A stretch of DNA of 64,000 nucleotides from Candidatus Binataceae bacterium (GCA_963752805.1 CAVWAA010000010.1:73450-137449); one strand, 5' to 3'. Shown: positions 18,751-48,801, numbered from the stretch's first letter. Notes: generated by a model from the sequence alone, not told the origin. A program made the numbers and translations.

Positions 18751-18828
18751 TAGTAGAACAGGCTTTAGCCTGTTGGTTCTCTTTCTCCTGACTTTTAAAG
18801 ACCACAGGCTAAAGCCTGTGCCACCTCA
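18751..18828. repeat. Twin-hairpin element H1 (left arm degenerate)
   Basis: ..aacaggctttagcctgtt..ccacaggctaaagcctgtgccac. Confidence 0.7.
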
Positions 18829-19162
18829 GAACGTCGGGTGGGGTCTTCGCCCCCTCCAGCACATGTTTGCAATGATCCGGTGACAGTGCGTCCAACGCTG
18901 CGCAGAGCGCCTTCGCCACCGGGTCGCCGGCCGCCGCGCGGGTCGCTATATTCCACGATATCGTATGCGCCGGGTCATCAAACAGAATGCCGCTGCCGGC
19001 GCGGTCGAGCAGCCACAACTCCAGGTACAAGTTCGGATCGTTGGCTTCGATCCACCCCAACAACCCGCCCCAATTATCTGGCGAGGGTGCAGCGCCGAGT
19101 CGTTGCGTCAGCAACTCTTTGACCAGCGGATCCATCGGCCTAGGAGTATTAGGAACAACCAT
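18809..19162 (-). CDS. Hypothetical protein (117 aa)
   Basis: Intact ORF with AGGGAGGAAAATTAAATG supplied by the edge of twin-hairpin copy H2. No family recognised. Confidence 0.5.
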   Translation of the reverse strand: MVVPNTPRPMDPLVKELLTQRLGAAPSPDNWGGLLGWIEANDPNLYLELWLLDRAGSGILFDDPAHTISWNIATRAAAGDPVAKALCAALDALSPDHCKHVLEGAKTPPDVLRWHRL

Positions 19163-19177
19163 TTAATTTTCCTCCCT

Positions 19178-19240
19178 AGTGGCACAGGTTCCAGCCTGTG
19201 TTTTTCTCTTTAAAGACCACCGGCTAAAGCCGGTGCCACT
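19178..19240. repeat. Twin-hairpin element H2
   Basis: agtggcacaggttccagcctgtg..caccggctaaagccggtgccact. Confidence 0.85.
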
Positions 19241-19483
19241 TCAGAACGTAGACACCGAAATCGCCGCCGCCAGGACTGCCGCCGCCCCGGCGAACATCGA
19301 CATATCAGTGTGCTGCGTCGGAATCGTCTCGGCCTTGCCATCCTTGATGCATGCGGTAAAGGTCTCAGCCGAAATCACATCCGGATGAATCTTGGTGGTC
19401 CGGCAATCGTTACCGGCAAGGTCGGTGAAGTTCACTTCCTTGACCCGCGCACATCCGGAGGCGCACAACAGCACAAGCAGCAA
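19241..19483 (-). CDS. Putative small lipoprotein
   Basis: If translation starts at TTG 19483 (after GGAGCAATTAAAATC from repeat C2) the product begins MLLVLLCASGCARVKEVNF.. (lipobox-like ASGC). The upstream part of track ORF 19241..19591 is repeat-derived. Confidence 0.35.
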   Translation of the reverse strand: MLLVLLCASGCARVKEVNFTDLAGNDCRTTKIHPDVISAETFTACIKDGKAETIPTQHTDMSMFAGAAAVLAAAISVSTF

Positions 19484-19568
19484 GATTTTAATTGCTCCGC
19501 TGACGCTCCGCTGTGCGCACGTCGCAGACTCCTTTGCTCGCTCCGCGCGGGGACGCGCTCCGCTAGTG
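19484..19568. repeat. C-module copy C2 (short form)
   Basis: gattttaattgctccgctgacgctccgctgtgcgcacgtcgcagactcctttgctcgctccgcgcgg..gctccgctagtg; starts right after the gpI-like stop. Confidence 0.8.
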
Positions 19569-20435
19569 CTAATGCGCAATCGGCACTCCATTTCTTGTCA
19601 GCGGCCCATCGGCCACGTGCGGCTCGTTCTGCCCGTAGGTAATCCCCGCGTGGTAATAACGCAGGTTCCAGTACGGCACGATCGGCTTGGTATCCGCGAT
19701 CGGGAAGAACGGCGCGCTGATAAAGTCGCTTGGCGCCGGTAACAAAAAGTCATGCTGCGTGAAAATATTCGTCAGCCGGTCGCTTATCGGCGGAATCAAG
19801 GTGTCAAACAGCCGCCAGCCGAATTGCACGCTATCCAGCCAGCAGCGCGCCGGCTTCCAGAAATTGCAGATTGCAGCTACCCGCGCGGCCAGCGTGCTCA
19901 ATTCTGTGCCCGGCGGCACCGTCGATAAGTCAATCAGCACCCGGAACACCGCCCATCCTTCGTTCGACGGCCAAGTGGTGCCGCCCCAGCTGTTCTGCCC
20001 CTCCTGCACAATCGCGTTGGGATAGCCGAGCCCAGCCAGCGCGTTCTTCAGTCCTGCCACCGATCCCATCAACGAATGGAGCGCGGTGCTGAGCTGGATC
20101 AGCGTCCGATACTGCGCATAACTCTGCTGCAGAGTGGGCGTCTCCGCCCCCTCGGCCTGATACTGCAACAGGTCGAGATTAATCAGCGTGTCGATTCCGC
20201 TGACCGGGTCCCAGCCCGGAAAGGCGAGCGTGATAATCTGCGACAGCTCGGGCAGCAGCAGGGGATTCAATACGTCCCAGTCCCACGCCATAGGAAGAAC
20301 CGCAGAATCCACCAGCGACGGAATCCGGTAGACCAGGATCGGCGACAGGTCAAGATCGCCGAGCCGTTCGATCAAATCCAGATGCGCCTGCGAGCGCGCA
20401 TCATTGATCGAAGGCTGCATTTGAAGCTCAGCCAT
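19569..20435 (-). CDS. Phage tail protein I (P2 gpI-like)
   Basis: ..SQAHLDLIERLGDLDLSPILVYRIPSLVDSAVLPMAWDWDVL.. is the Tail_P2_I N-terminal pattern. It lies downstream of the gpJ-like gene as in P2 and Mu. Confidence 0.75.
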   Translation of the reverse strand: MAELQMQPSINDARSQAHLDLIERLGDLDLSPILVYRIPSLVDSAVLPMAWDWDVLNPLLLPELSQIITLAFPGWDPVSGIDTLINLDLLQYQAEGAETPTLQQSYAQYRTLIQLSTALHSLMGSVAGLKNALAGLGYPNAIVQEGQNSWGGTTWPSNEGWAVFRVLIDLSTVPPGTELSTLAARVAAICNFWKPARCWLDSVQFGWRLFDTLIPPISDRLTNIFTQHDFLLPAPSDFISAPFFPIADTKPIVPYWNLRYYHAGITYGQNEPHVADGPLTRNGVPIAH

Positions 20436-20443
20436 TATTCCTT

Positions 20444-20490
20444 ATTTGTCACCCTCGCGTGTCTGGCGCGAAGCGTCCCGCGTCTGCGCT
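20444..20490. repeat. R-family element R2 (half)
   Basis: tttgtcaccctcgcgtgtctggcgcgaagcgtcccgcgtctgcgctc; read as the C-terminus of ORF 20449..20730. Confidence 0.7.
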
Positions 20491-20730
20491 CTTCAAGGAC
20501 TCCAATCCCTTCGTGCTTATCTGCCATTTGCCGCGCGCGGAGCCGGCCTCCACCAGCCCTTTGCGTTTGAGCCCCACTAGGCATGCGGTGGTGGCGTCTT
20601 TGGTCGCCGAGCCGCAGACGCGAAACACCTCATCGACCGTGCAATCCGGATCGCCACCACTCGACTGCGACTCAGCGAGGTAGCGCAAAATCCGCGTTGC
20701 AACCCGCCGCCCGCCCCATTGGCTTGCCAT
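20449..20730 (-). CDS. Small winged-helix-like protein inserted between gpJ and gpI
   Basis: 93 aa. ..RILRYLAESQSSGGDPDCTVDEVFRVCGSATKDATTACLVGLKRKGLVEAG..WQISTKG resembles a wHTH. The last ~12 codons are read from repeat R2. Confidence 0.45.
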   Translation of the reverse strand: MASQWGGRRVATRILRYLAESQSSGGDPDCTVDEVFRVCGSATKDATTACLVGLKRKGLVEAGSARGKWQISTKGLESLKSADAGRFAPDTRG

Positions 20731-20744: not shown

Positions 20745-20796
20745 AGTGGCACCGGCTTTAGCCGGTGGTCTTTCAAGAGAAGAAGCCTGTGCCACT
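20745..20796. repeat. Twin-hairpin element H3 (right arm truncated)
   Basis: agtggcaccggctttagccggtg..agcctgtgccact. Confidence 0.8.
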
Positions 20797-22166
20797 CAAG
20801 AGTGCTCCGTCCCAATCAGCTGCGTTAGTGTAATCGCCGTGCAATTCGCCCATTGACCGGCAGTCAACTGAGTATAACTCGGCTGTGTCAATTGTACTCT
20901 ATACACCCCCGGCACTGAACCTATCGCCGCGATAATCTCCTCCGGCACGATGTCTCTTTGAATCCTATTCGCTATGTTCTGCGCGAATTGACCCGCCGCG
21001 GTGTTCGCCGCCGACATCGTCACCCCCGGATCGGCATCAGAGTAAAGTGTCACCGTGCCGACGATCGTGTAATTTACTTCGGTCACCGCGAGCGCATTTA
21101 CGGTGTCGGTCAGCGGCCGAATCGCATCCGAATTGACGATCGCAGCCACCTTGCCGAGAATCACGCTCGACGCCACTCCCGACGTATTCGGCGAGACCGC
21201 CGGCTGCGTCACCGGGCCCATCAGCACGTACACGTTCACCGTCCCCGGCACCGGAGTCGTCACCAGCACGTCCACGATTCCAGGGTCGGCCGACAAGGCC
21301 CAGAAGCGGTAGGCGCCCACCGGCCCGGCCACGCTGAAGCGGTTTGGCGCCGCCTGAATCCGGTCCCGCAGATGGGCATCGGTCTCGATATTGCCTCCGC
21401 CGCTGGTGACGGTGGTATTAGTCACTGCGCTAATCAGCGTGTTCGGATTGAGCTGCACACTCACCTGGCCGACCGCGTAATTGTTTGCCGCCGCGCCGGG
21501 AGTGGTGCAGACCGCGCTTGCCACGCCGACTGTTGCTCCTGCCGGAATAATCAGATCCTGCAGCAGCGCGAACGTAAACACGCCGTCCTGGGTGCCAACC
21601 AGGGTCGCCGATGGAATATCGAAATCGAACGGCTGGGCTGCTGCCAGCGTGAATTGCAGCGTGCAGCTTGCCCCCTGCGCCGGCAGCCGCGTCACCCCCA
21701 GCAACTGCCCCAGATAGTCGAGCATGGGATAGGCCGCGAACGCCACGAGGCACTGCATGGCCGCGTACTGGATCGCATTGCGGACTAAGGATTCGCGGTA
21801 GGCATAGAGGTCGATCAGCAACCGCTCGACTTGCGCCGGATAGAGCGTGCGGCCCGCGAGAGATTGGAAGGACGCGATCATGTCATTGAGTATCAGGTTA
21901 GGGTCGAGTCCATCCGCGTCGTTGACAAAATTCGGTATGGGAAGCGAGACAATGCCGGTCGGCAGCGACACCACTTCGAGCACCGCCACGCAGGTCCAGC
22001 CGCCGGTGCCGTCGGCCGTGAACGCACCCAGCACGCTGCCCCAATTCGGTGGAATCGCCCCGGTAGAACCGGGCGTGCTGCTCCACTGCTGCACATTGGA
22101 GTTAGGGTCAATGATGACCTTCCCCGCAGCAACGGGCGCATTCGGCGACCAGGCAGGATTAGGCAT
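20796..22166 (-). CDS. Baseplate protein J (gpJ-like) with an N-terminal repeat-motif extension
   Basis: ..DAHLRDRIQAAPNRFSVAGPVGAYRFWALSADPGIVDVLV.. is the Baseplate_J core. The N-terminal ~65 aa (GKVIIDPNSNVQQWSSTPGSTGAIPPNWGSVLGAFTADGTGGWTCVA) carry the same motif as the sheath insertion. Confidence 0.85.
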   Translation of the reverse strand: MPNPAWSPNAPVAAGKVIIDPNSNVQQWSSTPGSTGAIPPNWGSVLGAFTADGTGGWTCVAVLEVVSLPTGIVSLPIPNFVNDADGLDPNLILNDMIASFQSLAGRTLYPAQVERLLIDLYAYRESLVRNAIQYAAMQCLVAFAAYPMLDYLGQLLGVTRLPAQGASCTLQFTLAAAQPFDFDIPSATLVGTQDGVFTFALLQDLIIPAGATVGVASAVCTTPGAAANNYAVGQVSVQLNPNTLISAVTNTTVTSGGGNIETDAHLRDRIQAAPNRFSVAGPVGAYRFWALSADPGIVDVLVTTPVPGTVNVYVLMGPVTQPAVSPNTSGVASSVILGKVAAIVNSDAIRPLTDTVNALAVTEVNYTIVGTVTLYSDADPGVTMSAANTAAGQFAQNIANRIQRDIVPEEIIAAIGSVPGVYRVQLTQPSYTQLTAGQWANCTAITLTQLIGTEHS

Positions 22167-22174: not shown

Positions 22175-22239
22175 AGTGGCACAGGCTTTAGCCTGTGGCC
22201 TTTCCGGGCAGCAGAACACAGGCTAAAGCCTGTGCCACT
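22175..22239. repeat. Twin-hairpin element H4
   Basis: agtggcacaggctttagcctgtg..cacaggctaaagcctgtgccact. Confidence 0.9.
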
Positions 22240-23929: not shown

Positions 23930-24391
23930 TTAGGCCAAACTCCTCGGCACCGTGATCGTCAATTGTTGATTACCCACTCCGCTCACGTCGATCTTCAATT
24001 GCCAGACTATCGTGATAAGCAAATTGGCCCGCGTTCCCCCGACCAGGTTGACGACGACGCTCAACACCCGGACTCTCGGCTCCCACTTCGTTATCCCCTC
24101 GACGATCTCCCGGACCAGCGCCGGACGCGCGACCGTAATCGGCGCATCGATCAATTGCCACAGATCGCAGGCGAACGTCGGCCGTAGCGGGTCGCTCCCT
24201 TTCGGCGTCGAGAGGATAATTCCGATGCACTGGTTGATATCCGCTATCCCTTGCACCACGAGTCCAAGTCCCGCGCCAGGCAGTATGGCGGAATTAATTC
24301 CGCCCTCCCCGGCACCGACGACCGAAGTGTCGAGGCACAGCGACCAATCCGCCGAGGTGATATCGTCAAGTGTAATCGCCCCCGCACTCAT
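23930..24391 (-). CDS. Baseplate protein W (gp25/GPW family) carrying an in-frame palindrome-element insertion
   Basis: ..INQCIGIILSTPKGSDPLRPTFACDLWQLIDAPITVARPALVREIVEGITKWEPRVRV.. is the GPW_gp25 pattern. Residues GEGGINSAILPG are encoded by GGCGGAATTAATTCCGCC (24287-24304). Confidence 0.8.
   Translation of the reverse strand: MSAGAITLDDITSADWSLCLDTSVVGAGEGGINSAILPGAGLGLVVQGIADINQCIGIILSTPKGSDPLRPTFACDLWQLIDAPITVARPALVREIVEGITKWEPRVRVLSVVVNLVGGTRANLLITIVWQLKIDVSGVGNQQLTITVPRSLA
24287..24304. repeat. Palindrome element P1 (variant GGCGGAATTAATTCCGCC), in frame inside gpW
   Basis: Encodes GGINSA within GEGGINSAILPG of ORF 23930..24391. Confidence 0.6.
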
Positions 24392-24405: not shown

Positions 24406-24470
24406 AGTGGCACAGGCTTCAGCCTGTGTTCTTTCTCTTTCAAAGACCGCCGGCTAAAGCCGGGGCCACC
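24406..24470. repeat. Twin-hairpin element H5
   Basis: agtggcacaggcttcagcctgtg..cgccggctaaagccggggccac. Confidence 0.85.
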
Positions 24471-24472
24471 TT

Positions 24473-24781
24473 TCAATCCGCCGCTACCACATCAAAGATA
24501 AACTCACTGCTGTATACCGGCCCTACCGGCCCCGGAAATATCACCGCAACCATTCCATGCCATCGCCCAATCGCGAACTCTCCCGCGATGACTGAATATT
24601 CCCATTCAATAGTCACTGCATTCCAGACGAGCGCCCGCGTGTAGAGAATGCCGTCCTGGTCACGCAGGCAGAGGGTCGCCATGGCGCCGGTGAAGGTGTT
24701 GGCGTTGCCACTCTGCTGTAACAGCGGAAATCCCAGCACTTTGCCGTTATCGGCGGTCGTTATGGTGTAGTACCCCACCAT
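24473..24781 (-). CDS. Hypothetical protein (about 102 aa)
   Basis: ATG 24781 (MVGYYTITTADNGK..) follows CACTAGGAAAAGCAGGC from twin-hairpin copy H6. No family recognised. Confidence 0.4.
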   Translation of the reverse strand: MVGYYTITTADNGKVLGFPLLQQSGNANTFTGAMATLCLRDQDGILYTRALVWNAVTIEWEYSVIAGEFAIGRWHGMVAVIFPGPVGPVYSSEFIFDVVAAD

Positions 24782-24794
24782 GCCTGCTTTTCCT

Positions 24795-24857
24795 AGTGGC
24801 ACAGGCTTTAGCCTGTGTTCTTCTCTTTAACGACCACCGGCTAAAGCCGGTGCCACT
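24795..24857. repeat. Twin-hairpin element H6
   Basis: agtggcacaggctttagcctgtg..caccggctaaagccggtgccact. Confidence 0.9.
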
Positions 24858-24865: not shown

Positions 24866-25826
24866 CTAGCCCAGTCTCGCGTCGAACGTAATCACCTGGC
24901 CAAGCCGCGCATCGAATCGAATCGCCAGGTCGAGCATCGCTGCTGTGAATATCACTCGCGGCGCGCCCGGCGACGGAACCGGCGGCGCCAATGACGCCCC
25001 GAGCCCCAGCTCAATCTGCCCGAGCTGCGAAATCTGAATGCCTAATTGGCCGGTAAAAGTCATCTCAATCGTCGCAGACGGTGCGTAAATATCCCGGTTC
25101 GCCAGCGGCAGGCGTATGCTGAGCGACTCCGCTGACATTCACATTCCCGGCATTTCCCCCTGCGTTTCCAGCGGAGCCTCCAACCGCCTGAGTCGCGGTC
25201 GCCGATCCGGCGATCCCATTAGTCCCAGTTTCATTTATTCGTATTGAGATACCGCTGCCGAGATTGCCGGCAACGGATGTCCCGCCAGCTGGGGCGCCTG
25301 GAGCGCTCGTGCATGCACCATTATTCGTTCCGCCGCCAATGCCGTGATGCTCGGTTAGCAGCACGCCATTAATTGTGATGGTGCTGTCTCCACCGTTCCC
25401 CCCCGCGACTGGAGTGGTCGGGTCGTTAGTTCCTGCGGCGCCAGCAGCGCCCAGTGCGTAGGTAAGAGTACCGGAGGGGTTTTTGATCTCCACTTCCGAG
25501 CAGGCCCCGGCTGAGCCGCTAGCCGCCGTGCATGCCGTTGTCGCTCCAGTGAGCTGCCCTCCTCCACCTCCCCCACCTGCGCAAATTCGGAGCATCAGGT
25601 TGATGCAAGTCGTTGGAACCGTATAGGTTGTTCCGGTCGTTAAATATTGCGTATCGGGCTCGATACGTGGCACGTAGGCCGCATAACTCCAATAGCCCAC
25701 CGCGATAGCGATCGCAGCCGAGAGGACTGATCTCCACGTTTTTGAACGCACCTCCAATAGGCCCTTGCGGGCCGTTCGGCAGACTCGTTTGCTCGGCTCC
25801 GCTTCGCTCCGCCTGGTGGTGTTCAC
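24866..25826 (-). pseudogene. Membrane-anchored glycine-rich fibre-like protein (frameshift near 25130)
   Basis: ..SVLSAAIAIAVGYWSYAAYV (TM) ..TTGTTYTVPTTCINLMLRICAGGGGGGG.. is the T.T.P / poly-G pattern of glycine-rich prophage fibre-region proteins. It continues in another frame as track ORF 24866..25138. The 5' ~25 codons derive from repeat C3. Confidence 0.4.
25748..25818. repeat. C-module copy C3 (truncated)
   Basis: cgcacctccaataggcccttgcgggccgttcggcagactcgtttgctcggctccgcttcgctccgcctggtg. Confidence 0.75.
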
Positions 25827-27940: not shown

Positions 27941-27947
27941 TTTTGTT

Positions 27948-28116: not shown

Positions 28117-28162
28117 AAACCAAAGCCGGAAGGTAGGGTGGGGGTCGTCGTCTGCATCTTTC

Positions 28163-33037: not shown

Positions 33038-33114
33038 GAACACAGGCTAAAGCCTGTGCCACCAGGAAAGGAATTGTCTGCCTCTTAAGTGGCACCGGCT
33101 TTAGCCGGTGTTCT
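33038..33114. repeat. Twin-hairpin element H7 (arms in swapped order)
   Basis: gaacacaggctaaagcctgtgccac..agtggcaccggctttagccggtgttc. Confidence 0.8.
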
Positions 33115-37862: not shown

Positions 37863-40034
37863 TCATCCAGTCGCGGCCGCCGTGGTTCCTGCGGTGCTCG
37901 CGGCCCCGGTCAGGGCCGACAGCAGGGTCGTGTCAATAAATACGTTGAAGGTCAGCCGCTCGGCCGGCGGCGGCGGCATGCAATCGATATCGAAGACCAG
38001 CTGCCCCGCGGCGATTTGCGATGGCGGATTTTCTGCTGGATTATAACTCGCGGTGCCTGCGACCAGCGCGCCGCGTCCGATCAGCACGCGGATAAAGCTG
38101 TTGACGCTGGCGAGAATCGTCGTGATCAGCGCGTTCGAAATCGGCTGGTCGAGGAACTGCATCATCGAGAGCATCACGCTCTGCTCGATCACGTCCATCG
38201 TGCGGCGAATCGGGATAAAGACGTCGGGCGTGGTGTAGGACGGAAAGCCCGCGCTGCGATTGCCCCACACCCGGATGCCGGTGCCGAAGGCCTGGAACGC
38301 AGTGAGTATTCCCTGGCTATTGAGCACATTGGTGTCGCTGGCCGAATCGATGAAGCTCGAATAAACCGAGACGTCAGGCCCGAGCACGCCGATAATCTGC
38401 GTATTCGACGGCGACCACCAGTATCCCTGCGCCAGGTCCTTGGCCGAGGTTGCGCCTGCGACCCACGGCGACAAAGGGCCCGCATGAGTGAGGTTGGCAA
38501 TCGTCTGAATCGCCTTGCCGGCGATTGGATCGACTCCGATTCCGGTCGGCACGATTCCGCTGTCGAGAAACAGTTGCTGCGGGCCGCAGAGGACCGCGCG
38601 CTTGTCGCTGGTATTGAACGAATTGCCCGAAGCGCCCCGATTCGAAAGCAACGTCGCCGGCGAGCTGCCCGCCGGACAATCGACGAAGTACATCGCGCGC
38701 ATCGCGACGGCCACCGCCGCCATCCCGGCCGCCACCGTCGCATCCTGCGATCCGGCCGTCTGCCCGGAGGCAACGTAAGCGCCAAAGCTCGGCGCGATCA
38801 GCAGCTTGGGAAAGAAACCCATCAGGCCGTAGCTGAGCTTCCAGCATTGCATCCCGGTGTAGACGTTGCCGGTGACATTGCCGACCAGGTCGCTGTCCGC
38901 CAGCTTGCTTGGGTCCGCATAATTGCAGCTAAGCTTGACGCTCTGTCCTGCGGTCAGCAGTCCGCCGCCGGTCGCAGTGATGACGCCGTTGACGCGGTCG
39001 ACAGTGAAGTCCGCGCCCTCGACGTAAGTGGTTGTTCCCGCCGAGTTGGTGAGCTTGATCGTGGACAGCCCCATGTGGCCGACGTTGATCGTCTGCGCTC
39101 CCGATGCCGGGAACGCATAGATGACTGCGGTGAGCGTCGAGTAATGTTTGGTCTGGTCGAAGACGTTGACCGTTATCGCCTGCCCCGCGCCCTGCGCGAA
39201 GACCTGATTGAGCGCATAGGGAATCGTGAAGCCCTGAATCAGCGGGCCGAAGGTGCCTGACTGTCCCGGCGCCAGCGAGTTCGGATTCGACCCCGCCACC
39301 AGCATGGGGGTCTGGAGATTTGCAATCGGCCCCTTTGCTGTGAGCGTCCAGGTGATGCTGCCGGTCGCCGTGGCGATAGTGTCGGTCGCTGTGTTGCCGA
39401 CGATTGTTGCCCAGGTCGGCGCCGCCGTGGCGCTGGTTATCGCCGCCTTGCCGATAGCGACTAAGGTCCAAGTGACCGTGCCATCGACGACCGTCGCGCC
39501 GAGCGCGGTCGGCCATACCGGCCCTGCGCCGGTAGTTCCTGCGGTAGTGCAGCGCTGCGTATTGCCGTTGGTATCGAGCACCAGGTTGCCGGCCACATAC
39601 GCGGTTGTCGCGGCCCAGTTCGGCAGCGTGATCGCAGTCGCGGTCTGGATATTGCCGTTGCTGTCGATACATTGCTGGCCAGCCGCCGCGCCGATCGCGA
39701 CCAGCGTCCAGACCGTGGTGCCGTCATTCGTAGTAGCGCCGAGTGTGCGCGCCCAAGCCGGCGTCGTAGTGCCGGTGGTGCCGGCGGTGGTGCATTTCTG
39801 AGTATTGCCGTTCGCATCGACGATCAGATTGCCGACGAGTTCTGCGGTTGAAGCGCTCCAGGCCGGAGCCGCCTGCACCAGCCAGGACAAATCCCATAGC
39901 GGCAAGGCGCCGGGGACGGCAAACAGGGGAGCCGATCCGACCAGCCCGATGACCGCGGAGTTGACGACATTGATCGGAACCGGTCCGAGATTGAACTCGA
40001 AGACCTCGACCCCGTGGAGGAAACTAGCTGGCAT
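37863..40034 (-). CDS. Contractile tail sheath protein with a ~195-aa repeat insertion near the N-terminus
   Basis: MPASFLHGVEVFEF..VIGLVGSAP start. C-terminal ..GIRVWGNRSAGFPSYTTPDVFIPIRRTMDVIEQSVMLSMMQFLDQPISNALITTILASVNSFIRVLIGRGALVAG..AGQLVFDIDCMPPPPAERLTF is the sheath C-domain pattern. Residues ~41-236 are 3-4 copies of a G.L..D.NGN.Q.CTTAGTTG..P.W....GAT..DGTV.WTLVA motif. Confidence 0.85.
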   Translation of the reverse strand: MPASFLHGVEVFEFNLGPVPINVVNSAVIGLVGSAPLFAVPGALPLWDLSWLVQAAPAWSASTAELVGNLIVDANGNTQKCTTAGTTGTTTPAWARTLGATTNDGTTVWTLVAIGAAAGQQCIDSNGNIQTATAITLPNWAATTAYVAGNLVLDTNGNTQRCTTAGTTGAGPVWPTALGATVVDGTVTWTLVAIGKAAITSATAAPTWATIVGNTATDTIATATGSITWTLTAKGPIANLQTPMLVAGSNPNSLAPGQSGTFGPLIQGFTIPYALNQVFAQGAGQAITVNVFDQTKHYSTLTAVIYAFPASGAQTINVGHMGLSTIKLTNSAGTTTYVEGADFTVDRVNGVITATGGGLLTAGQSVKLSCNYADPSKLADSDLVGNVTGNVYTGMQCWKLSYGLMGFFPKLLIAPSFGAYVASGQTAGSQDATVAAGMAAVAVAMRAMYFVDCPAGSSPATLLSNRGASGNSFNTSDKRAVLCGPQQLFLDSGIVPTGIGVDPIAGKAIQTIANLTHAGPLSPWVAGATSAKDLAQGYWWSPSNTQIIGVLGPDVSVYSSFIDSASDTNVLNSQGILTAFQAFGTGIRVWGNRSAGFPSYTTPDVFIPIRRTMDVIEQSVMLSMMQFLDQPISNALITTILASVNSFIRVLIGRGALVAGTASYNPAENPPSQIAAGQLVFDIDCMPPPPAERLTFNVFIDTTLLSALTGAASTAGTTAAATG

Positions 40035-40158: not shown

Positions 40159-40326
40159 GTCACCCCGAGCGAAGCCGAGGGGTCAACGCGAAGCGGTTCA
40201 ATGCGCGATACGCGCTCTTGCGACGGTCCGTTTGAACCAGCAGGGTGCCGGTTCGAATTGTTTTGTGGCTCACCCGGCATCATGCTTCCGCTCCGCGTTG
40301 ATTCCTCGGCTGCGCTCGGAATGACA
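40159..40326. mobile_element. MITE-like element M4b (full length)
   Basis: gtcaccccgagcgaagccgaggggtcaacgcgaagcggttcaatg..gtttgaaccagcagggtgccggttcgaattg..gattcctcggctgcgctcggaatgaca. Confidence 0.85.
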
Positions 40327-40336
40327 GAACAAAAGC

Positions 40337-40552: not shown

Positions 40553-40635
40553 TTTTAATTCGCTCCGCTTCGCTCCGCCGTGCGCACGTCGCAGACTCCT
40601 TTGCTCGCTACGCGCGCGGACGCGCTCCGCTAGTG
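40553..40635. repeat. C-module copy C4 (short form)
   Basis: tttttaattcgctccgcttcgctccgccgtgcgcacgtcgcagactcctttgctcgctacgcgcgcgg..gctccgctagtg; abuts the ATG at 40552. Confidence 0.85.
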
Positions 40636-40651: not shown

Positions 40652-40678
40652 AGTGGCACAGGCTTTAGCCTGTGATTC
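40652..40678. repeat. Twin-hairpin element H8 (single arm)
   Basis: agtggcacaggctttagcctgtg. Confidence 0.75.
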
Positions 40679-40682: not shown

Positions 40683-41168
40683 TCACGAGATGAACCTCAA
40701 TGCGATGCTCACCGCTAATGCGACCAGCCATGCGACCGCGGTGACTGCCCAAATCCGGCCCTGCAGGTTCGCCTGGTTGTTTTCAAGCGCGCCGATGCGG
40801 TCGCTCAGGACGTTGCGCTCGCGGTCGCTGGCATCCCGCCCCGCGTAGAATTTCTCCTCCATCGACCGGATCAACGCTGTCGCCTCAGACCGCGGCATCA
40901 GCATCTTGGCCTGGTCATCGAGCTGGCCGCGGAACTCATTGCTGCGTTCGTTGTATGCGCGCTGTGCCTCTTCGGACTTCACGATCGCCTTTTCATTCGC
41001 CACGAAGGCCAGTGCCACTGCTTCCCTTTGCGCACTCACCGCCGCCTGCATCGCGAGGTCGGCCGCCCGGAAGCGGGCGTCGTATTGCCGGTCGCGCTCA
41101 TCGAGCAGCCGCTCGAGGAACTCGCGCAGGCCGACTGACGGCGCATCAGCCATAGGCGCATCAGTCAT
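40683..41168 (-). CDS. Coiled-coil protein with a C-terminal TM anchor (lysis-cassette associated, unknown role)
   Basis: ..FLERLLDERDRQYDARFRAADLAMQAAV..NERSNEFRGQLDDQAKMLMPRSE..LENNQANLQGRIWAVTAVAWLVALAVSIALRFIS. Intact 161-aa ORF. Confidence 0.5.
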   Translation of the reverse strand: MTDAPMADAPSVGLREFLERLLDERDRQYDARFRAADLAMQAAVSAQREAVALAFVANEKAIVKSEEAQRAYNERSNEFRGQLDDQAKMLMPRSEATALIRSMEEKFYAGRDASDRERNVLSDRIGALENNQANLQGRIWAVTAVAWLVALAVSIALRFIS

Positions 41169-41176
41169 AGATTTTC

Positions 41177-41194
41177 GACGGAATAAATTCCGTC
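41177..41194. repeat. Palindrome element P8 (one mismatch)
   Basis: gacggaataaattccgtc; just upstream of the ATG at 41168. Confidence 0.7.
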
Positions 41195-41204
41195 CTGCCC
41201 TCCT

Positions 41205-41605
41205 TTAAGTGGCACAGGCTTCAGCCTGTGTCTTCTCATACGCGGCCAGCCAGCGCGCCAGATATTCCGGGTTGCGCTTGCCTTCGACGAATACTGCCTG
41301 CTCGCCGAGGTTCCACGCCTGCACGATCAAATCGCGCTCGTCCTGGTCCGCATTCAGCCATAGATGCGTCCGCAGAAACGTCGCGCACGCTTTGATAAAT
41401 GCGGTGGTCCAGGTGTCGTCAGTGGCGGGCGGGAAGCGCAGAACGGCGATGTAAAATCGTTTGAAGGTCGCCGGATGCATCTGCAGTAAGCCGAACGACT
41501 TGGCCTCCATCTCCAATCCTGTATTCGTCCTCGTTTGATTCGATGATCGCGAACGCGCGGACTTCGTCTGCGTACTCACCTGCGATGCTGTAGTTAATCG
41601 CAATA
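41205..41605 (-). pseudogene. Lytic transglycosylase (SLT-like) endolysin, frameshifted near 41510
   Basis: IPIAINYSIAGEYADEVRAFAIIESNEDEYRIGDGG (track ORF 41419..41784 frame; catalytic-Glu context IIES), then AKSFGLLQMHPATFKRFY.. (track ORF 41205..41651 frame; GLLQM motif). The 5' end abuts palindrome copy P9. Confidence 0.5.
41208..41234. repeat. Twin-hairpin element H9 (single arm)
   Basis: agtggcacaggcttcagcctgtg. Confidence 0.75.
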
Positions 41606-41635
41606 GGTATGGCGGAATTAATTCCGTCCTCCTCA
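41606..41635. repeat. Palindrome element P9
   Basis: ggtatggcggaattaattccgtcctcctca; at the 5' edge of the transglycosylase remnant. Confidence 0.85.
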
Positions 41636-41696
41636 TCGTCCACAGATCCACTTGCCTCCGCTACTTCGTCGCGTCGCGCCACAGCCCACGGACAGG

Positions 41697-41894
41697 TCAA
41701 TTGCGCGAGTACCTGGCGCCAACCATTCGCTTGCGCATTGGCACTACCCTCGCACGCTTTTTCTGCGGCTGCCGCCGCTTCCAACTCTCAACGGCAAAGC
41801 ACAGCGAGTAGCCGGCGCCGATAGCGGCGAGCATAATGCCCGAGGAGGACGGAATTAATTCCGTAATACGGCCCATCAGAAAATCAGTGCTCAC
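41697..41894 (-). other. Small ORF interrupted by a palindrome element; Gly/Ala-rich TM segment (possible signal-anchor or holin fragment)
   Basis: GTG 41894 (after GGAGCGAATTAAAATC of C5): MSTDFLMGRITELIPSSSGIMLAAIGAGYSLCFAV.. Residues ITELIPSS are encoded by P10. A second frame continues ELEAAAAAEKACEGSANAQANGWRQVLAQ.. toward the transglycosylase. Confidence 0.25.
41842..41870. repeat. Palindrome element P10
   Basis: gaggaggacggaattaattccgtaatacg; inside the small ORF 41697..41894. Confidence 0.85.
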
Positions 41895-41998
41895 GATTTT
41901 AATTCGCTCCGCCTACGCTCCGCTATGCGCACGTCCAGTAGGCCCTTACGGCCGTTCGGCAGACTCTTTTGTTCGGCTCCGCTTCGCTCCGCCTAGTG
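41895..41998. repeat. C-module copy C5 (long form)
   Basis: gattttaattcgctccgcctacgctccgctatgcgcacgtccagtaggcccttacggccgttcggcagactcttttgttcggctccgcttcgctccgcctagtg; abuts the GTG at 41894. Confidence 0.9.
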
Positions 41999-42934: not shown

Positions 42935-43237
42935 CCTGCAGGATCTCAGGCGGCTGCTTGTTGAGCATCTCGGTCAGTCCCGCCAGCAGGATCTTCGCCA
43001 CCTCCAGATTCGGCACGTCGAGAGTCGCCTCGCCGATTACCGTGGGACCGCCGGCGAGACGCGGATGAGATTAATGCCGAAAATTTGCATATCCGCTGCC
43101 TGCGCCTGCACCAGCGGCACGTGCATCGCGTAGAGCTTGTAGCGCCTGCGGCCGTTGGCATAATCGTCGCGCACCCAGGAGCTGGTAACCATCGCGGCCG
43201 CGGGCACCGGTGGGGCTCCATTCTTGGTGATATCCAT
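42918..43237 (-). pseudogene. Hypothetical head-tail region protein, frameshifted at a CCGGCGG run; stop codon supplied by a palindrome element
   Basis: MDITKNGAPPVPAAAMVTSSWVRDDYANGRRRYKLYAMHVPLVQAQAADMQIFGINLIRVSP, then (own translation, other frame) GGPTVIGEATLDVPNLEVAKILLAGLTEMLNKQPPEILQVGGRN, ending at the TAA inside GGACGGAATTAA of P12. Confidence 0.35.
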
Positions 43238-43340
43238 GATTCTTAATGGCTCCGATTACGCTCCGCTGTGCGCACGTCCAATAGGCCCTTACGGGCCGTT
43301 CGGCAGACTCCTTTGCTCGGCTCCGCTTCGCTCCGCCTAG
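43238..43340. repeat. C-module copy C6 (long form)
   Basis: gattcttaatggctccgattacgctccgctgtgcgcacgtccaataggcccttacgggccgttcggcagactcctttgctcggctccgcttcgctccgcctag; fills the whole gap between the gp37-like stop and the ATG at 43237. Confidence 0.9.
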
Positions 43341-44225: not shown

Positions 44226-44357
44226 GATTCTTCGGTGGTTTCGCTTACGCTATGTCGCAGAACCCCCTCTTATCATTCCATCCTGTGCGCACGTCCAATA
44301 AGCCCTTGCGGGCCGTTGGGCAGACTTCTTTTGCTCGGCTCCGCTTCGCTGCGCCTA
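44226..44357. repeat. C-module copy C7 (long form with a diverged 3' third)
   Basis: gattcttcggtggtttcgcttacgc..cctgtgcgcacgtccaataagcccttgcgggccgttgggcagacttcttttgctcggctccgcttcgctgcgcctag; fills the gap between the gp36-like stop and the gp37-like start. Confidence 0.8.
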
Positions 44358-44358
44358 G

Positions 44359-44820
44359 TCAAAATCCTTTCAGCGTGCTTCTTCGAAAAATTCGTTGGGG
44401 CAGCGAGGGATCGCTGCCGAAGTTCTCGTCCATCACCACTGCTGGATTCGCAGGGTCGGCCGGCTCCTGGCTATCGGTGCTGAGGCCCAGCGTCCGCTTG
44501 CCGTCGCTCACCTCTTGCAGGAATGCGATTGCCTTTTCGTACTTGTCCTTGGCATCGGCGAGGTCGTGAATCGGCCGCAGCGAATTAAGATGATACATCG
44601 CGATCGCGCAGCAGAGCCGGGTCAGGATCGCCGGCGGGTCGGTCAGCGGCAGAGCGAAGCGCGATTCGAGGTACGCATCGATTTCGTCGGACGCGTCATT
44701 GAGAAACGTCGTCAGGAATCCGGTGTTGACCGTGGTGACGGTCGGGTCTTCGTTGGTGAGCTGCACCAGGTCCCGGTAGGGATAGCGCGCCTGCATATCG
44801 GTGACGATTGCGTAGCTCAC
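44359..44820 (-). CDS. Mu gp36-like protein (DUF1320)
   Basis: MSYAIVTDMQARYPYRDLVQLTNED..FLNDASDEIDAYLESRFALPL..PAILTRLCCAIAMYHL.. is the DUF1320 pattern. Confidence 0.75.
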   Translation of the reverse strand: MSYAIVTDMQARYPYRDLVQLTNEDPTVTTVNTGFLTTFLNDASDEIDAYLESRFALPLTDPPAILTRLCCAIAMYHLNSLRPIHDLADAKDKYEKAIAFLQEVSDGKRTLGLSTDSQEPADPANPAVVMDENFGSDPSLPQRIFRRSTLKGF

Positions 44821-44837
44821 GATTGCTGCTGCCTCTT

Positions 44838-45010
44838 TGTCACCCCGAGCGAGGCCGAGGGGGCAACGCGAAGCGATTCGGTGCTCGATACCGCATTCAG
44901 CGACGATCAGTTTGAACCAGCAGGCTGCCGGTTCAAATTGTTTGTCGGCAGCGCACCTCGCGACATTGCTTGCGCTTCGCGTTGATTTCTCGGCTCCGCC
45001 CGGAATGACA
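44838..45010. mobile_element. MITE-like element M5
   Basis: tgtcaccccgagcgaggccgagggggcaacgcgaagcgattcggtgctcgata..gtttgaaccagcaggctgccggttcaaattg..gatttctcggctccgcccggaatgaca. Confidence 0.85.
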
Positions 45011-45016
45011 CAAACA

Positions 45017-46063: not shown

Positions 46064-46097
46064 GATTTTTAACTCGCTCCGCTCACGCTCCGCTGTG
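46064..46097. repeat. C-module copy C8 (3' part only, fused to H10)
   Basis: gatttttaactcgctccgctcacgctccgctgtg. Confidence 0.7.
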
Positions 46098-46159
46098 ACA
46101 GGCTTTACTGTGTTCTTCTATTGAATTTTTAAAGACCACCGGCTAAAGCCGGTGCCACT
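46095..46159. repeat. Twin-hairpin element H10 (left arm degenerate)
   Basis: gtgacaggctttactgtg..caccggctaaagccggtgccact. Confidence 0.75.
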
Positions 46160-46712: not shown

Positions 46713-46728
46713 TCTGTCGTTTCCGCCT

Positions 46729-46822
46729 CTGTCACCCTCGCGTGGCTGCCGCGAAGGGTCCCGCGTCCTCGCTTCTGCGTCTCGGGATTCCTCGCGCGCC
46801 AGACACGCGCGGGAATGACAGA
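46729..46822. mobile_element. R-family element R6 (complete, ~94 bp)
   Basis: ctgtcaccctcgcgtggctgccgcgaagggtcccgcgtcctcgcttctgcgtctcgggattcctcgcgcgccagacacgcgcgggaatgacaga. Confidence 0.8.
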
Positions 46823-46832: not shown

Positions 46833-47828
46833 TTATGCGAGCCATTCGCTGACTATCAGGGTTGCGTCGTTCAGGTAGATATTCGCCACTGGGATCGCTG
46901 CTTGATCGCGCCACGCACCGCCGGTCGTCCTGCGCCGAAGGTCGCATGCAGGAGCTGCCTGGCAACCTCCTCGAGGGCTGGCGGCACTACCAGGAAACGT
47001 GTGGTCGGCGGCCCGTTCCAGGCGCCGAACGGCACGCCTGCGTCGCTCTTGATCCCGCGCAACGCTGCCACTGCGGCCCCGTAATTCGCCGGGTTCGAGA
47101 GGTCGGTATTGCTTGCATAGGTCAACTGCCACAGGCCGACGCCGGCGTTGCATCGCACGTCCACGCCGTAGCGGAACAGCCGCTGCGAGAATACCGCTTC
47201 GTCAGTCACGGTGTTCATCCGGCTCACTGCGTATTCGCGCCGCTTCTGGAAGATGAAGGGCTTGATCGGCCGCGCCCCGTCGACCAGGTACCAGTAGGGG
47301 CCGGTGCCGGTCGAATTGACGTTCGAGTAAGTGGCACCGGACGAGGATTCGCCCGCCAGTCCAGCCGGATGCGTTGCGTAGTAGAGATTGTTGCCGTCGT
47401 AGCAAATCGGCACCGGGATCGGTAATTTTGCCAATCGTCACAGGGGCCCCAGTGATCGCTGCCTTCATCATGCCGAAGACCAGTTGGTCGGGATGGGTCT
47501 TCGCGTCCCATCCGAGCAGTTCGACCGCCGGCGCATAGACGCCGTACTGGTCGTCTTCGATCCGTTCGCGCTCAAGGCTGATAGTGTCTTCGAAGGTCTT
47601 ATTGACGATAGTGTAGGTATGGGCTTCGAGCGTTTGCATTATCCGGTCGCCGACCCATTCGCGGAACCCGGTGGTGCGGCCGAGCCAGGGATAAATCGTC
47701 TGGCTGGTGGACGACGGCACGATCGAACAGATCTTGTCGTAGTAGGAGGGCGCCGCCTCGAAGCCCTTCTGAAAGATCATGTCGAACCCGGTGAAGAGGG
47801 TAGTGAGGTTTTGCGCAGATACTTCCAT
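46833..47828 (-). pseudogene. Major capsid protein, Mu gpT-like, split over three frames
   Basis: MEVSAQNLTTLFTGFDMIFQKGFEAAPSYYDKICSIVPSSTSQTIYPWLGRTTGFREWVGDRI.. (gpT N-terminus, track 47202..47828), then ..PIPVPICYDGNNLYYATHPAG..KPFIFQKRREYAVSRMNTVTDEAVF.. (track 46871..47434). The true C-terminus AIPVANIYLNDATLIVSEWLA is in a third frame (end of track ORF 46833..47153). Confidence 0.8.
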
Positions 47829-47843
47829 GATTGTTTATTCCTT

Positions 47844-47907
47844 AGTGCGCACCGGCTTTAGCCGGTGGTCTTACAAAAGAAGAACACAGGCTAAAGCCTG
47901 TGCCACT
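47844..47907. repeat. Twin-hairpin element H11
   Basis: agtgcgcaccggctttagccggtg..cacaggctaaagcctgtgccact. Confidence 0.9.
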
Positions 47908-48107
47908 TAATCCACCCTCGGAGTGCCGATTCCTGTGATTTGTTGCGTGGCCACGTACCTGCCGTAAATCGCAAACAGGGCGCCGCCTAGGGCGGTTACG
48001 TTAGCTGGGGTCGGTCCACCCTGCGTGAACATGTCCGCCACAGCGCCGACCGCAGCGACGATTCCACCCCACATTGCTTTCGATGCGTACCAGGATTTTG
48101 AATCCAT
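47907..48107 (-). CDS. Small two-TM membrane protein
   Basis: MDSKSWYASKAMWGGIVAAVGAVADMFTQGGPTPANVTALGGALFAIYGRYVATQQ.. Intact, with SD AGGAAATT from the edge of H12. Confidence 0.45.
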   Translation of the reverse strand: MDSKSWYASKAMWGGIVAAVGAVADMFTQGGPTPANVTALGGALFAIYGRYVATQQITGIGTPRVD

Positions 48108-48122
48108 AATTTCCTAGCCTTG

Positions 48123-48194
48123 GTGGCACAGGCTTTAGCCTGTGTTCTTTACTCTCTTAACTTTAAAAGACCACCGACTAAACCGGTGCCACTT
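48123..48194. repeat. Twin-hairpin element H12
   Basis: ggtggcacaggctttagcctgtg..caccgactaaaccggtgccact. Confidence 0.85.
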
Positions 48195-48206
48195 CAGACA
48201 AACTCA

Positions 48207-48718
48207 TTATGCTGTCGCCAGGGCGAACTGCTGGAAGAAGTCGACGTACACCAGGCCACCGTCGATTGCGATCACGGTACCTGCGACAGGCGCCGCGGCG
48301 GTGTTGGTCGAGGTGCTGACCGTATGATCGTCAGCGCAATAAACCAGCGACCCGATATTCGCGAAGGTGATGCTAGAATCGTTGTCCATGCCGAACACGC
48401 CGCGGGCAACCTTCACCGAGATCGCGCCGGCTGCGCCGACAACGCCGGCTGCGCCTGGAAACAAGAATCCGTTGCCCGTCTGATTGAGCGCGTTGACGCC
48501 CGGCGGCAGATCGCCGCCGGCATAAACGGTCTCAAGGATACCAAGAACCTTCAGCGTAGCTCCACTGCAGTGCCTGGTACGGCATAGCCGGTAGTGGTGA
48601 TGCAGACCATGCCACCGACATAGAGGCTGGTCGACGCTTGCACAGGGATCAGCCCGTAATGCTGGCGCCGGCTGCCGGACCATTCGGGGGTGTTTCGTGA
48701 TGCACTCAGTGGTGCCAT
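48207..48718 (-). pseudogene. DUF2190-like head decoration protein, frameshifted near 48570
   Basis: Own translation from ATG 48718: MAPLSASRNTPEWSGSRRQHYGLIPVQASTSLYVGGMVCITTTGYAVPGTAVELR(stop), then in the +1 frame GATLKVLGILETVYAGGDLPPGVNALNQTGNGFLFPGAAG..VARGVFGMDND.. (track ORF 48207..48683). Confidence 0.55.
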
Positions 48719-48733
48719 TTTTGTTTTTCCTTA

Positions 48734-48801
48734 AGTGGCCCAGGCTTCAGCCTGTTTTCTTTTTCTCTAACTTAAAGAACACAGGCTAAAGCCTTGCCAC
48801 T
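48734..48801. repeat. Twin-hairpin element H13 (degenerate)
   Basis: agtggcccaggcttcagcctgtt..cacaggctaaagccttgccact. Confidence 0.75.

Follow-up and report, generated by a model that had tools for sequence, protein, structure and literature searches.

REP elements, very probably moved by a host-lineage transposase, between the structural genes of a Mu-like prophage in Binatota

The 64,000-nucleotide stretch of Candidatus Binataceae DNA analysed here (hereafter the window) carries a Mu-like prophage in which a short hairpin-forming repeat recurs between structural genes, and the question raised by this locus is whether the repeat is a regulatory RNA module of the phage or belongs to a family of another origin. 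An earlier note on this DNA had described thirteen copies (H1-H13) of a twin-hairpin intercistronic element and proposed that its edge provides the ribosome-binding site of the downstream gene. An exhaustive covariance-model scan of the window identified 22 arms at 13 loci (E ≤ 4e-5), all within 18,750-48,803, with none in positions 1-18,749 or 48,804-64,000, which include about 24 kb of flanking chromosome. The arm pattern AGTGGCACMGGCTTTAGCCKGTG gave 19 matches in the window at up to three mismatches, compared with 0 expected from shuffles. Each arm joins an unpaired (A/G)GT(G/A)G head to a 7-bp stem, rich in G+C and capped by a 4-nt loop (TTTA or TTCA), and both stem versions claimed previously, CACAGGC/GCCTGTG (A-type) and CACCGGC/GCCGGTG (C-type), were confirmed among them. 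The density of arms in the prophage is about 0.7 per kb. The loci are as follows:

H1, 18752..18825, minus strand: head-to-head REP pair (arms 18752-18774 and 18803-18825, 28-nt spacer)
H2, 19178..19240, minus strand: head-to-head pair; on the coding strand a C-type arm precedes an A-type arm
H3, 20745..20796, minus strand: pair of a complete C-type arm (20745-20767) and an arm truncated to GCCTGTGCCACT
H4, 22175..22239, minus strand: head-to-head A/A pair, upstream of a baseplate J-like gene (ATG 22166)
H5, 24406..24470, minus strand: head-to-head C/A pair between ORF 24473-24802 and the baseplate wedge gene 23930-24391
H6, 24795..24857, minus strand: head-to-head C/A pair
H7, 33041..33110, no strand assigned: tail-to-tail arms (33041-33063 and 33088-33110), not a twin hairpin
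H8, 40652..40674, minus strand: single arm, 8 nt past the stop of ORF 40683-41168
H9, 41208..41230, minus strand: single arm
H10, 46092..46159, minus strand: pair of an intact C-type arm (46137-46159) and a degenerate arm (46092-46112)
H11, 47845..47907, minus strand: head-to-head pair of reverse polarity, the A-type arm being first on the coding strand
H12, 48122..48195, minus strand: head-to-head pair with a degenerate arm at 48168-48195 (25.8 bits)
H13, 48734..48803, minus strand: head-to-head pair after the head protease/scaffold gene

All thirteen loci were thus recovered where they had been described, but only ten of them hold head-to-head twins, namely H1, H2, H4, H5, H6, H11, H12 and H13 together with H10 (one arm degenerate) and H3 (one arm truncated), and the basic repeat unit is the single arm, not the twin.

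Concerning the placement of the arms, the proposed proximity to the upstream stop codon holds for ten of the thirteen loci, where the element overlaps the stop or lies within 14 nt of it. At H1 and H9 the reading frame terminates inside the arm or right after it: ORF 18809-19162, upstream of H1, ends at a TAG in the loop of the first arm, and ORF 41205-41651 reads through the H9 arm to a TAA right after CCACT. The TGA of ORF 19241-19591 abuts the AGTGG head at H2, and that of the baseplate gene 20796-22166 overlaps the first base of H3. At eight of the thirteen loci (H1, H2, H4, H5, H6, H11, H12 and H13), CCACT runs straight into a Shine-Dalgarno (SD)-like stretch of purines, and a start codon follows after 5-13 nt, as at H2, where CCACT is followed by AGGGAGG and an ATG at 19162; the gene that immediately follows H11 is the Mu gpT-like major head gene (ATG 47828). 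The purine stretch is absent at H7 and H8, the H7 edge offering neither an SD nor a start codon, and is too far from the start codon at H9 and H10. Comparison of the H13 junction, the one junction with recognisable homologues, indicates that the SD is a property of the downstream gene: the related contig L008 has a twin and a recognisably homologous SD, and L115 has a single arm and a more loosely homologous SD, separated from the REP by a 75-nt filler.

The distribution of the arm extends well beyond this prophage. An exact copy of the 22-mer was found in 19 IMG/VR contigs and, among the matches listed, in more than 117 loci of GTDB genomes, the hosts being soil MAGs (Binataceae, 'delta proteobacterium' MAGs, Bryobacterales and other Acidobacteriota); near-identical REPs are present in two phyla, Binatota and Acidobacteriota. 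Several MAGs carry many separate loci (for example CAVOPN01 and CAWIKC01), and several unrelated viral contigs hold the same REP beside terminase, portal and head genes. Among 264 arms, 124 are single and the adjacent pairs comprise 43 head-to-head, 19 tail-to-tail and 12 tandem arrangements; the head is GTGG in 238 and GTAG in 14, the consensus arm is (A/G)GTGGCACAGGCTTTAGCCTGTG, and subfamilies of pairs are distinguished by spacers of 6, about 17 and about 32 nt. An ORF covers 24% of arm centres compared with 80% of random positions, and single arms in genomes display no orientation bias (17 versus 13) and favour convergent gaps (16) over divergent ones (5). In many MAGs the arm lies dispersed between chromosomal genes, in all orientations, its chromosomal copies having no conserved outer flank. 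Since the arm is generic and its chromosomal copies are not tied to start codons, the family is that of an ordinary REP, an outcome which the earlier note had itself named as refuting its reading, and the notion of a phage-specific module whose edge serves as ribosome-binding site is not supported for it.

The phage copies form a subfamily of their own, characterised by the spacer GTCTTT(A/C)AAGAGAAGAA and a pyrimidine-rich outer flank, TCYNA, which chromosomal copies lack; an overly strict spacer-specific pattern for this subfamily recovered L007 only. No match was obtained for 24 kb of the prophage against deposited phages by megablast, or for one twin against deposited phages and plasmids by blastn. 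In Rfam, the window scanned at the gathering threshold and positions 40-49 kb scanned by E-value yielded nothing beyond a tRNA and chance-level matches.

The arms display the features of REPs, i.e. a short palindrome (20-40 nt in such families) that forms a stem-loop, a GTAG-like unpaired head, occurrence as singles, dimers and arrays, and inverted REPs on either side of a REP-associated tyrosine transposase (RAYT) gene. In this superfamily the GTAG tag is known to vary to GTRG and GTGG, and REP ends can supply stop codons (PMC3733652). RAYT genes flanked by inverted arms were observed in four loci (L108, L098, L137 and L140); the NCBIfam model for REP-associated tyrosine transposases, NF047646 (cut-off 80 bits), gives 95 bits for the L108 gene and 109 bits for that of L098, both genes also match Pfam Y1_Tnp, and among solved structures the L098 protein comes closest to 4ER8, TnpA-REP of E. 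coli (E = 7e-10). The RAYT genes reside in housekeeping neighbourhoods, beside mnmE/gidA and rpoD, and have 380 homologues, many of which are called RayT by their sources. Within a single Binataceae MAG, JAMXLL01, the RAYT of L108 occurs together with other REP-bearing contigs (L041 and L128) and with L115, a related prophage that carries REP arms. The window contains no RAYT gene, a weak tblastn match at 66-290 not being one; judging from its relatives, this genome presumably possesses a cognate RAYT.

Based on these findings, we conclude that the arms are very probably GTAG-superfamily REPs moved by a host-lineage RAYT which have colonised the Mu-like prophage, the twins being inverted REP dimers of the BIME/REPIN type. 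Family identity, association with RAYT, hairpin covariation, extragenic bias and insertion polymorphism are the observations that carry this conclusion. As in other members of its family, a chromosomal RAYT (Y1/HUH) of the Binatota host lineage would recognise the head and hairpin on single-stranded DNA and copy REPs or REP pairs into extragenic DNA. A Mu-like prophage residing in such a host would have become colonised, and its tightly packed genes would let insertions survive solely in the few nucleotides between a stop and the next SD; REPs may thus abut stops and SDs because insertions elsewhere between packed genes do not survive. Once transcribed in the late polycistronic mRNA, REP pairs would fold into very stable hairpins, which, by analogy with E. 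coli REPs, probably act as 3'-exonuclease barriers or partial attenuators that skew the expression of neighbouring genes. Such effects on late mRNA, for example stabilisation or attenuation, are plausible; altered RNA stability or processing, and recombination, would possibly be secondary consequences of the REPs.

Related phage contigs provide evidence of mobility. L007, which is 87-95% identical, lacks H4 and H5, retains H6 at the same junction and bears a twin where the corresponding junction of the window has none. H4 is present in L017 and absent from L007, L015, L016, L006 and L019, and L014 has kept both H8 and H9. Closely related phage contigs differ in the junctions that carry a REP, an insertion polymorphism that speaks for mobility, and the absence of H4 and H5 from close relatives speaks further against a phage-specific module. 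No clean pair of filled and empty sites was found among the related junctions, as other fillers differ too and leave the insertion point and target unreadable.

Besides the absence of a RAYT gene from the window and of a clean filled and empty pair, two further observations stand against this explanation. All 22 arms in the window lie in the prophage and none in its flanks, which reverses the pattern ordinarily seen at prophages and hints at something phage-specific; moreover, the phage copies have their own spacer and flank. Prophages are usually 'REP deserts', REPs marking old, stable chromosome (PMC3390384), and for REPIN-RAYT systems both vertical inheritance and an absence from mobile agents have been argued (bioRxiv 10.1101/2021.07.10.451892). 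It is conceivable, though we consider it unlikely, that temperate phages carry REP/REPIN lineages, with a phage-adapted REPIN subfamily that multiplies in phage genomes and rides between hosts. Phages acting as REP carriers would explain the near-identical REP in Binatota and Acidobacteriota, and the phage may have co-opted the hairpins for tuning late-gene stoichiometry.

A phage-evolved intercistronic RNA module, in which a long hairpin in the late mRNA is cut by RNase III or blocks exonucleases and the stop beside the SD permits re-initiation (translational coupling), is improbable. The eight twins that were folded all gave a predicted long arm-to-arm hairpin of about -30 to -54 kcal/mol with z-scores of -4 to -8 (-42.5 kcal/mol for H1 and -54.5 kcal/mol for H4), the outer flanks with the stop and SD regions being partly paired, and the predicted 23-bp duplex, with 0-2 internal mismatches (three at H5), is plausibly a candidate RNase III substrate. 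The proximity of stops (ten of thirteen loci) and SDs (eight of thirteen), the distinct phage subfamily with its purine-rich outer flank, and the action of E. coli REPs as stabilisers and attenuators (bioRxiv 10.64898/2026.03.23.713779) would also accord with such a module. Covariation, however, points to the short stems. For 35 distinct twins, pairing in the local stems amounts to 98%, and the covariation score is 0.114 (0.032 in shuffles), which none of 500 shuffles reached; in 138 distinct arms, 99.8% of cells in the 7-bp stem are paired and four of the seven stem pairs have changed on both sides, again reached by 0/500 shuffles. The 23-bp arm-to-arm pairing, in contrast, is 90.8% paired versus 90.9% in shuffles (321/500 reach it), the 35 distinct twins thereby revealing no arm-to-arm covariation above shuffles, and 18 of 43 pairs mix an A-type with a C-type arm. 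The earlier note's contention that selection acts on two local hairpins and not on a long inverted repeat is thereby substantiated. The RNA module is further weakened by the identity of its unit with a chromosomal REP that has its own transposase, by the variable presence of the element among phages that are 87-95% identical, by an SD that is kept where the REP is displaced, by the unbiased orientation and convergent preference of single genomic arms, and by the lack of an Rfam match.

A role as recombination hotspots, i.e. shared boundaries that would help related phages to exchange gene modules, is quite improbable as the origin of these repeats, dispersed repeats having such exchange as a consequence. 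The similarity of the window to L007, L014 and L008 does break at intergenic repeats, and gene content differs beside some elements, the H3 junction of L017, for instance, containing about 500 bp that bring three additional REP positions; these breaks are equally explained by gain or loss of the repeats themselves, and a cargo swap exactly at a REP edge was seen in zero cases. The prophage also contains at least four further intergenic repeat families, which would suit exchange at shared boundaries.

That the arms are intrinsic, partly bidirectional terminators or insulators of the late operon is highly improbable. An A-type arm with a T-rich tail (TTCTTCTCTTT) was flagged at H1, H2, H5, H6, H8, H12 and H13, but seven of the nine terminator-like matches face the antisense (plus) strand and two the sense strand, the coding strand being represented by H11 and the degenerate H12 arm only. 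On the sense strand the tails (GUCUUUAAAG) make poor U-tracts, no T-tail is conserved among chromosomal copies, and a single structural operon interrupted by thirteen terminators would defeat its own purpose. That the arms bind a phage repressor or activator, in the manner of stoperators or of Mor/C-type late-promoter sites, is scarcely conceivable: every arm is a perfect dyad, as is frequent in operators, and a Mor-family activator gene lies at 52741-53226, but the dyad-keeping paired changes (A-T to C-G, G-C to A-T) are needed by a hairpin and not by a dimeric protein, no element has a sigma-70-like promoter, and the sequence is scattered through the chromosomes of two phyla, where it flanks RAYT genes.

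If phages do carry REPs, this would contradict a strictly vertical inheritance of REPIN-RAYT systems and their exclusion from mobile elements, and phages would be a route for REP spread provided that the phage copies are packaged and transferred. A Mu-like prophage with its own REP subfamily runs counter to both the REP-desert and the vertical-inheritance expectations. REPs and RAYTs are ordinary in kind and already familiar, here from a phylum that has received little study; the unusual points are the dense settlement of REPs in this prophage and in several viral contigs unrelated to one another, and the sharing of a near-identical REP by two phyla. This locus also serves as a warning that covarying hairpins between phage genes can be selfish DNA of host type rather than phage regulatory RNA.

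Several known systems resemble these repeats in part, and the operator, attC, TIR-MITE and PeSL readings are ruled out by their defining features. The Correia elements (CREE) of Neisseria are short palindromic repeats between genes that are co-transcribed and whose long hairpins are RNase III substrates altering the stability of neighbouring mRNA; as MITEs they end in 26-bp terminal inverted repeats, duplicate a TA target and have no RAYT, whereas the present unit is a tagged hairpin without direct target duplication. A DDE-type MITE was rejected likewise, as the flanks are inverted (TCTGA...TCAGA or TAGGA) and chromosomal copies lack a conserved flank. RNase III sites of T7 and the promoter-early stem-loops (PeSL) of T4-type phages likewise recur as stem-loops between phage genes, but are phage-specific and linked to promoters or processing; the present unit has no promoter and is common to host chromosomes and a transposase. 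It is not a T7-type site, being neither phage-specific nor fixed (H4 and H5 are absent from L007, and copies are chromosomal in many MAGs), and the comparison with PeSL made previously fails as no element has a sigma-70-like site, such sites numbering 1 and 3 in two regions against 2.9 and 3.1 expected (sigma-70 consensus only). Integron attC is excluded as the consensus (A/G)GTGGCACAGGCTTTAGCCTGTG holds no R''/R' cores (RYYYAAC ... GTTRRRY).

The closest likeness is to the REP/BIME elements of E. coli (RAYT = TnpA-REP, YafM; PDB 4ER8), which share a GT(A/G)G head with a short G+C-rich hairpin, occurrence as singles, arrays and inverted dimers of two variants (A- and C-type here, Y and Z there), an extragenic position often right after stop codons, and a Y1/HUH gene flanked by inverted REPs, the RAYT found here matching 4ER8 best. 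Stem, loop and head nevertheless differ (GTGG is commoner here than GTAG), and the hosts are Binatota and Acidobacteriota, with the studied copies in a prophage structural operon. In the REPINs of Pseudomonas fluorescens (Bertels and Rainey 2011, PMC3116915), two inverted REPs with a subfamily spacer of fixed length are likewise the repeated unit, tied to a single-copy, chromosomally anchored RAYT as here. The paired REPs of the present family, in contrast, vary independently and are often different variants, and a strict REPIN, whose pair is kept as one long hairpin, was rejected in the absence of compensatory evolution between its two REPs. Finally, unlike the REPIN-RAYT systems described as vertically inherited (bioRxiv 10.1101/2021.07.10.451892), the present family has copies in phage genomes and a REP that spans two phyla.

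Very probably, the thirteen repeat loci H1-H13 are REP/BIME-type elements (REP, repetitive extragenic palindrome) of a family associated with RAYTs (REP-associated tyrosine transposases of the Y1/HUH type), which have spread into the gene junctions of a Mu-like prophage. The elements sit among prophage genes carried on the minus strand, the landmarks of which are as follows:

52741-53226, minus strand, Mor-family activator
48865-50346, minus strand, head protease/scaffold
47828-46871, minus strand, gpT-like major head gene
37863-40034, minus strand, tail sheath
23930-24391, minus strand, baseplate wedge gene
20796-22166, minus strand, baseplate J-like gene
15288-13792, minus strand, Mu-type portal

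No terminase or transposase was seen in the window's prophage. Its chromosomal flanks encode AcrB, a CheB/CheR hybrid kinase, tRNA-Asp, an amidohydrolase and a CoA-transferase, and are approximately 75% alike to 'delta proteobacterium' MAG loci (L072, L130). The host probably belongs to the Binatota. Two adjacent paralogous genes are also present in the chromosomal flank (59251-60237 and 60318-61244; DNA approximately 68% identical over 540 nt). Contigs related to the prophage at 75-95% identity were identified (L014/L004, L007, L008, L010, L011, L015-L017, L115 and L116), L115 and L116 being derived from Binataceae MAGs. The Mu-type portal is out of order, being located after the tail genes and beside the host amidohydrolase, and is in two or three pieces. 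Furthermore, the gpT-like gene (46871-47828) is broken by a 1-nt insertion near position 47421, whereas its counterparts in L008, L115 and L010 are unbroken (328-398 aa) and lack the insertion; this copy of the prophage may therefore be decaying, having become defective and rearranged, unless indel errors in the assembly are responsible.

An arm, the single REP unit, consists of an unpaired (A/G)GT(G/A)G head, a 7-bp stem and a 4-nt loop. The arm pattern AGTGGCACMGGCTTTAGCCKGTG was matched 19 times in the window at ≤3 mismatches, as against 0 matches expected from shuffles, while an unfiltered scan of the whole window with a one-arm covariance model (29 positions, 7 base pairs) returned 22 arms (E ≤ 4e-5). 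All 22 lie within 18,750-48,803, so that 30 kb of prophage contains every arm of the 64-kb window, and the same scan returned zero arms in the flanks outside this interval. The thirteen copies reported in the earlier note were all recovered in their places, but they are not equal twins, as a complete head-to-head pair is present at only eight:

H1, H2, H4, H5, H6, H11, H12, H13: complete head-to-head pairs
H10: pair with one degenerate arm
H3: pair with one truncated arm
H7: tail-to-tail pair
H8, H9: single arms

Read directly from the sequence, beginning at the head, one arm presents stop codons in each of the three frames, namely TGA (flank), TAG (loop) and TAA (spacer).

The proposal that each element forms two local hairpins was upheld. 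Across 138 distinct arms the local stem is paired in 99.8% of cells, and in four of the seven stem pairs both partners are substituted (A-U to C-G or G-C to A-U, for example), which none of 500 shuffles matched, bearing in mind that copies of a replicating element are non-independent events and that the arm alignment had been fitted to the model. Among 35 distinct pairs, the local hairpins are 98% paired with a covariation of 0.114 (0.032 in shuffles), whereas arm-to-arm pairing is no better than in shuffled pairs (90.8% versus 90.9%). The predicted RNA folds of the window pairs all favour the long hairpin (-30 to -54 kcal/mol, z-scores of -4 to -8), and this hairpin would be present in a transcript irrespective of any selection for it.

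The arm is also encountered well beyond this prophage. The exact 22-mer GTGGCACMGGCTTTAGCCKGTG is present in 19 IMG/VR contigs and, in species-representative genomes, at more than 117 loci among the matches listed; the hosts among those matches are Bryobacterales and other Acidobacteriota, Binataceae, 'delta proteobacterium' MAGs, one Dormibacterota MAG and two 'Clostridia' MAGs. Searches of deposited phages, plasmids and Rfam revealed nothing similar to the window elements. Of 264 arms counted in 1 Mb of fetched DNA, 124 are single, while adjacent arms are paired head-to-head (43), tail-to-tail (19) or in tandem (12). Arm centres fall inside ORFs in 24% of cases, compared to 80% for random positions. 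Between co-directional genes, chromosomal single arms have no preferred orientation (17 versus 13), and they are more frequent in convergent (16) than in divergent gaps (5); this placement is the REP pattern, with no tie to start codons. The unpaired head reads GTGG, with 14 arms having GTAG instead. Tandem arrays of three or four arms were observed in Acidobacteriota MAGs (L029 31-170; L044 3682-3792; L036 3558-3637 and 4194-4310).

A motif search of all ORFs of the loci identified two Y1-type proteins beside arms (L108 and L098), both of which match Pfam Y1_Tnp and score 95 and 109 bits, respectively, against NCBIfam NF047646 (REP-associated tyrosine transposase; cut-off 80 bits). Among solved structures, the L098 protein is matched best by E. 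coli TnpA-REP (4ER8, E = 7e-10), with IS200/IS605 transposases behind. The L108 gene sits between AGTGGCACAGGCTTTAGCCTGTG and its inverted partner, and inverted arms around a RAYT gene are the defining arrangement of a REP-RAYT system. Both reading frames (L108 1254-1806; L098 500-1061) end in ...ITG-stop, and the TGA falls within the loop of the REP on the 3' side, so that this REP provides the last codons and stop codon of the RAYT. A database search returned 380 homologues, many called RayT by their sources; among four further loci fetched, two have inverted arms around the RAYT gene, next to mnmE/gidA (L137) and rpoD (L140), while one has weak arm matches only and one has none. A more distant, apparently frameshifted homologue with arms on its flanks is present in a Bryobacterales MAG (L036). 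A single Binataceae MAG, JAMXLL01, holds a RAYT (L108), REP-bearing contigs (L041 and L128) and a related prophage with arms (L115); no RAYT gene was found within the 64-kb window.

The earlier note had further held that the edge of the element supplies the downstream ribosome-binding site. The adjacency is real, as a purine-rich SD immediately follows CCACT at 8 of 13 loci and the upstream stop overlaps or is ≤14 nt away at 10 of 13, but the SD is not part of the family. The outer flank of chromosomal arms is not conserved; at the H13 junction the window and L008 have homologous leaders (GGAAAAAC..ATG), and L115, in which the corresponding leader is shorter, has 75 nt of filler separating REP and SD; and at the H4 junction L007 keeps the SD GGAG with a different 190-nt filler in place of the REP, while L015 has no insert. 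The simplest account of the element positions is that, in so tightly packed an operon, insertions would be tolerated only between a stop and the next SD. In the phage copies, both outer flanks carry a shared pyrimidine-rich sequence, TCYNA, and the stop-side TCTGA persists where its TGA is out of frame (H1, H6), for which reason the phage subfamily may extend a few bases beyond the core. At H9, the SD AAGGAGG is approximately 30 nt from the ATG at 41168, and the small hairpin between them (GACGGAATTTATTCCGTC; window 41168-41207) could bring the two together.

Occupancy of junctions varies among relatives. Despite an identity of 87-95%, L007 and the window have different sets of occupied junctions: H6 is common to both, H4 and H5 are missing from L007, and L007 carries a twin at the junction matching 23858/23930, which is empty in the window. 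H8 and H9 are shared with L014. The phage copies are a separate subfamily with the spacer GTCTTT(A/C)AAGAGAAGAA, chromosomal subfamilies having spacers of 6 nt or approximately 32 nt. In seven cases the side that is T-rich and terminator-like points towards the antisense strand, and in two towards the sense strand, a bias that would fit selection against termination in the late operon. Arms also adjoin terminase, portal, head or tail ORFs in the viral contigs L003, L005, L013 and L018, in which no similarity to the proteins of this prophage was detected.

At least four other intergenic repeat families occur in the same prophage; within the DNA fetched they were confined to the window and to related viral loci, and this phage lineage seems, on the whole, to accept small inserts readily. 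Those located in the window include:

16163-16320, 27946-28126, 33562-33724 (inverted), 40159-40336, 44836-45016: MITE-like element, approximately 170 nt, five copies
17980-18054, 25747-25818, 41892-41998, 43235-43340, 44283-44359: leader-like modules, 75-105 nt
19486-19568, 40553-40635: leader-like modules, second group
16334-16384, 17916-17965, 20447-20494, 37747-37853 (inverted), 46727-46822 (also L007 4740-4860): third repeat family (..GACGCGGGACCCTTCGCGGCAGCCACGCGAGGGTGACA)

The MITE-like copies are 75-83% alike, with terminal inverted repeats TGTCATTCCGAGCGCAGCCGAGG and CCTCGGCTTCGCTCGGGGTGACA; outside the window, related viral loci were the only fetched DNA in which this element was found. 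The leader-like modules have the core GAGTCTGCCGAACGGCCCGTAAGGGCC, most copies finishing ..GCGGAGCGnnnGCGGAGCGAATTAAAA right before a start codon, and L015 contains eight copies of the second group; these modules may be the real phage-specific intercistronic modules. One L007 copy of the third family has a 21-nt direct repeat, GTGCCGAGGAGCCTGGCGTGA, at its flanks; the repeat is a duplicate of the upstream gene's 3' end, which suggests a different mechanism of insertion.

The kind of REP described here is already known, while its location is unusual. As a rule, prophages are REP deserts (PMC3390384), and REPIN-RAYT systems have been described as vertical and not carried in mobile agents (bioRxiv 10.1101/2021.07.10.451892); against this expectation, the window arms are all in a prophage, and unrelated-looking viral contigs carry arms too. 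The presence of the same REP in two phyla is likewise unusual. Judging from E. coli REPs (bioRxiv 10.64898/2026.03.23.713779), the elements could plausibly act on mRNA stability, in attenuation or in coupling. The GTGG/GTAG head agrees with the GTAG-tagged REP superfamily, in which both GTGG variants and stop-codon-supplying REP ends are on record (PMC3733652), and the tandem arrays of L029, L044 and L036 resemble multi-REP BIME clusters. Finally, an A-type arm (CACAGGC/GCCTGTG) is joined to a C-type arm (CACCGGC/GCCGGTG) in 18 of the 43 head-to-head pairs, a combination resembling that of the Y and Z REPs in E. coli BIMEs.
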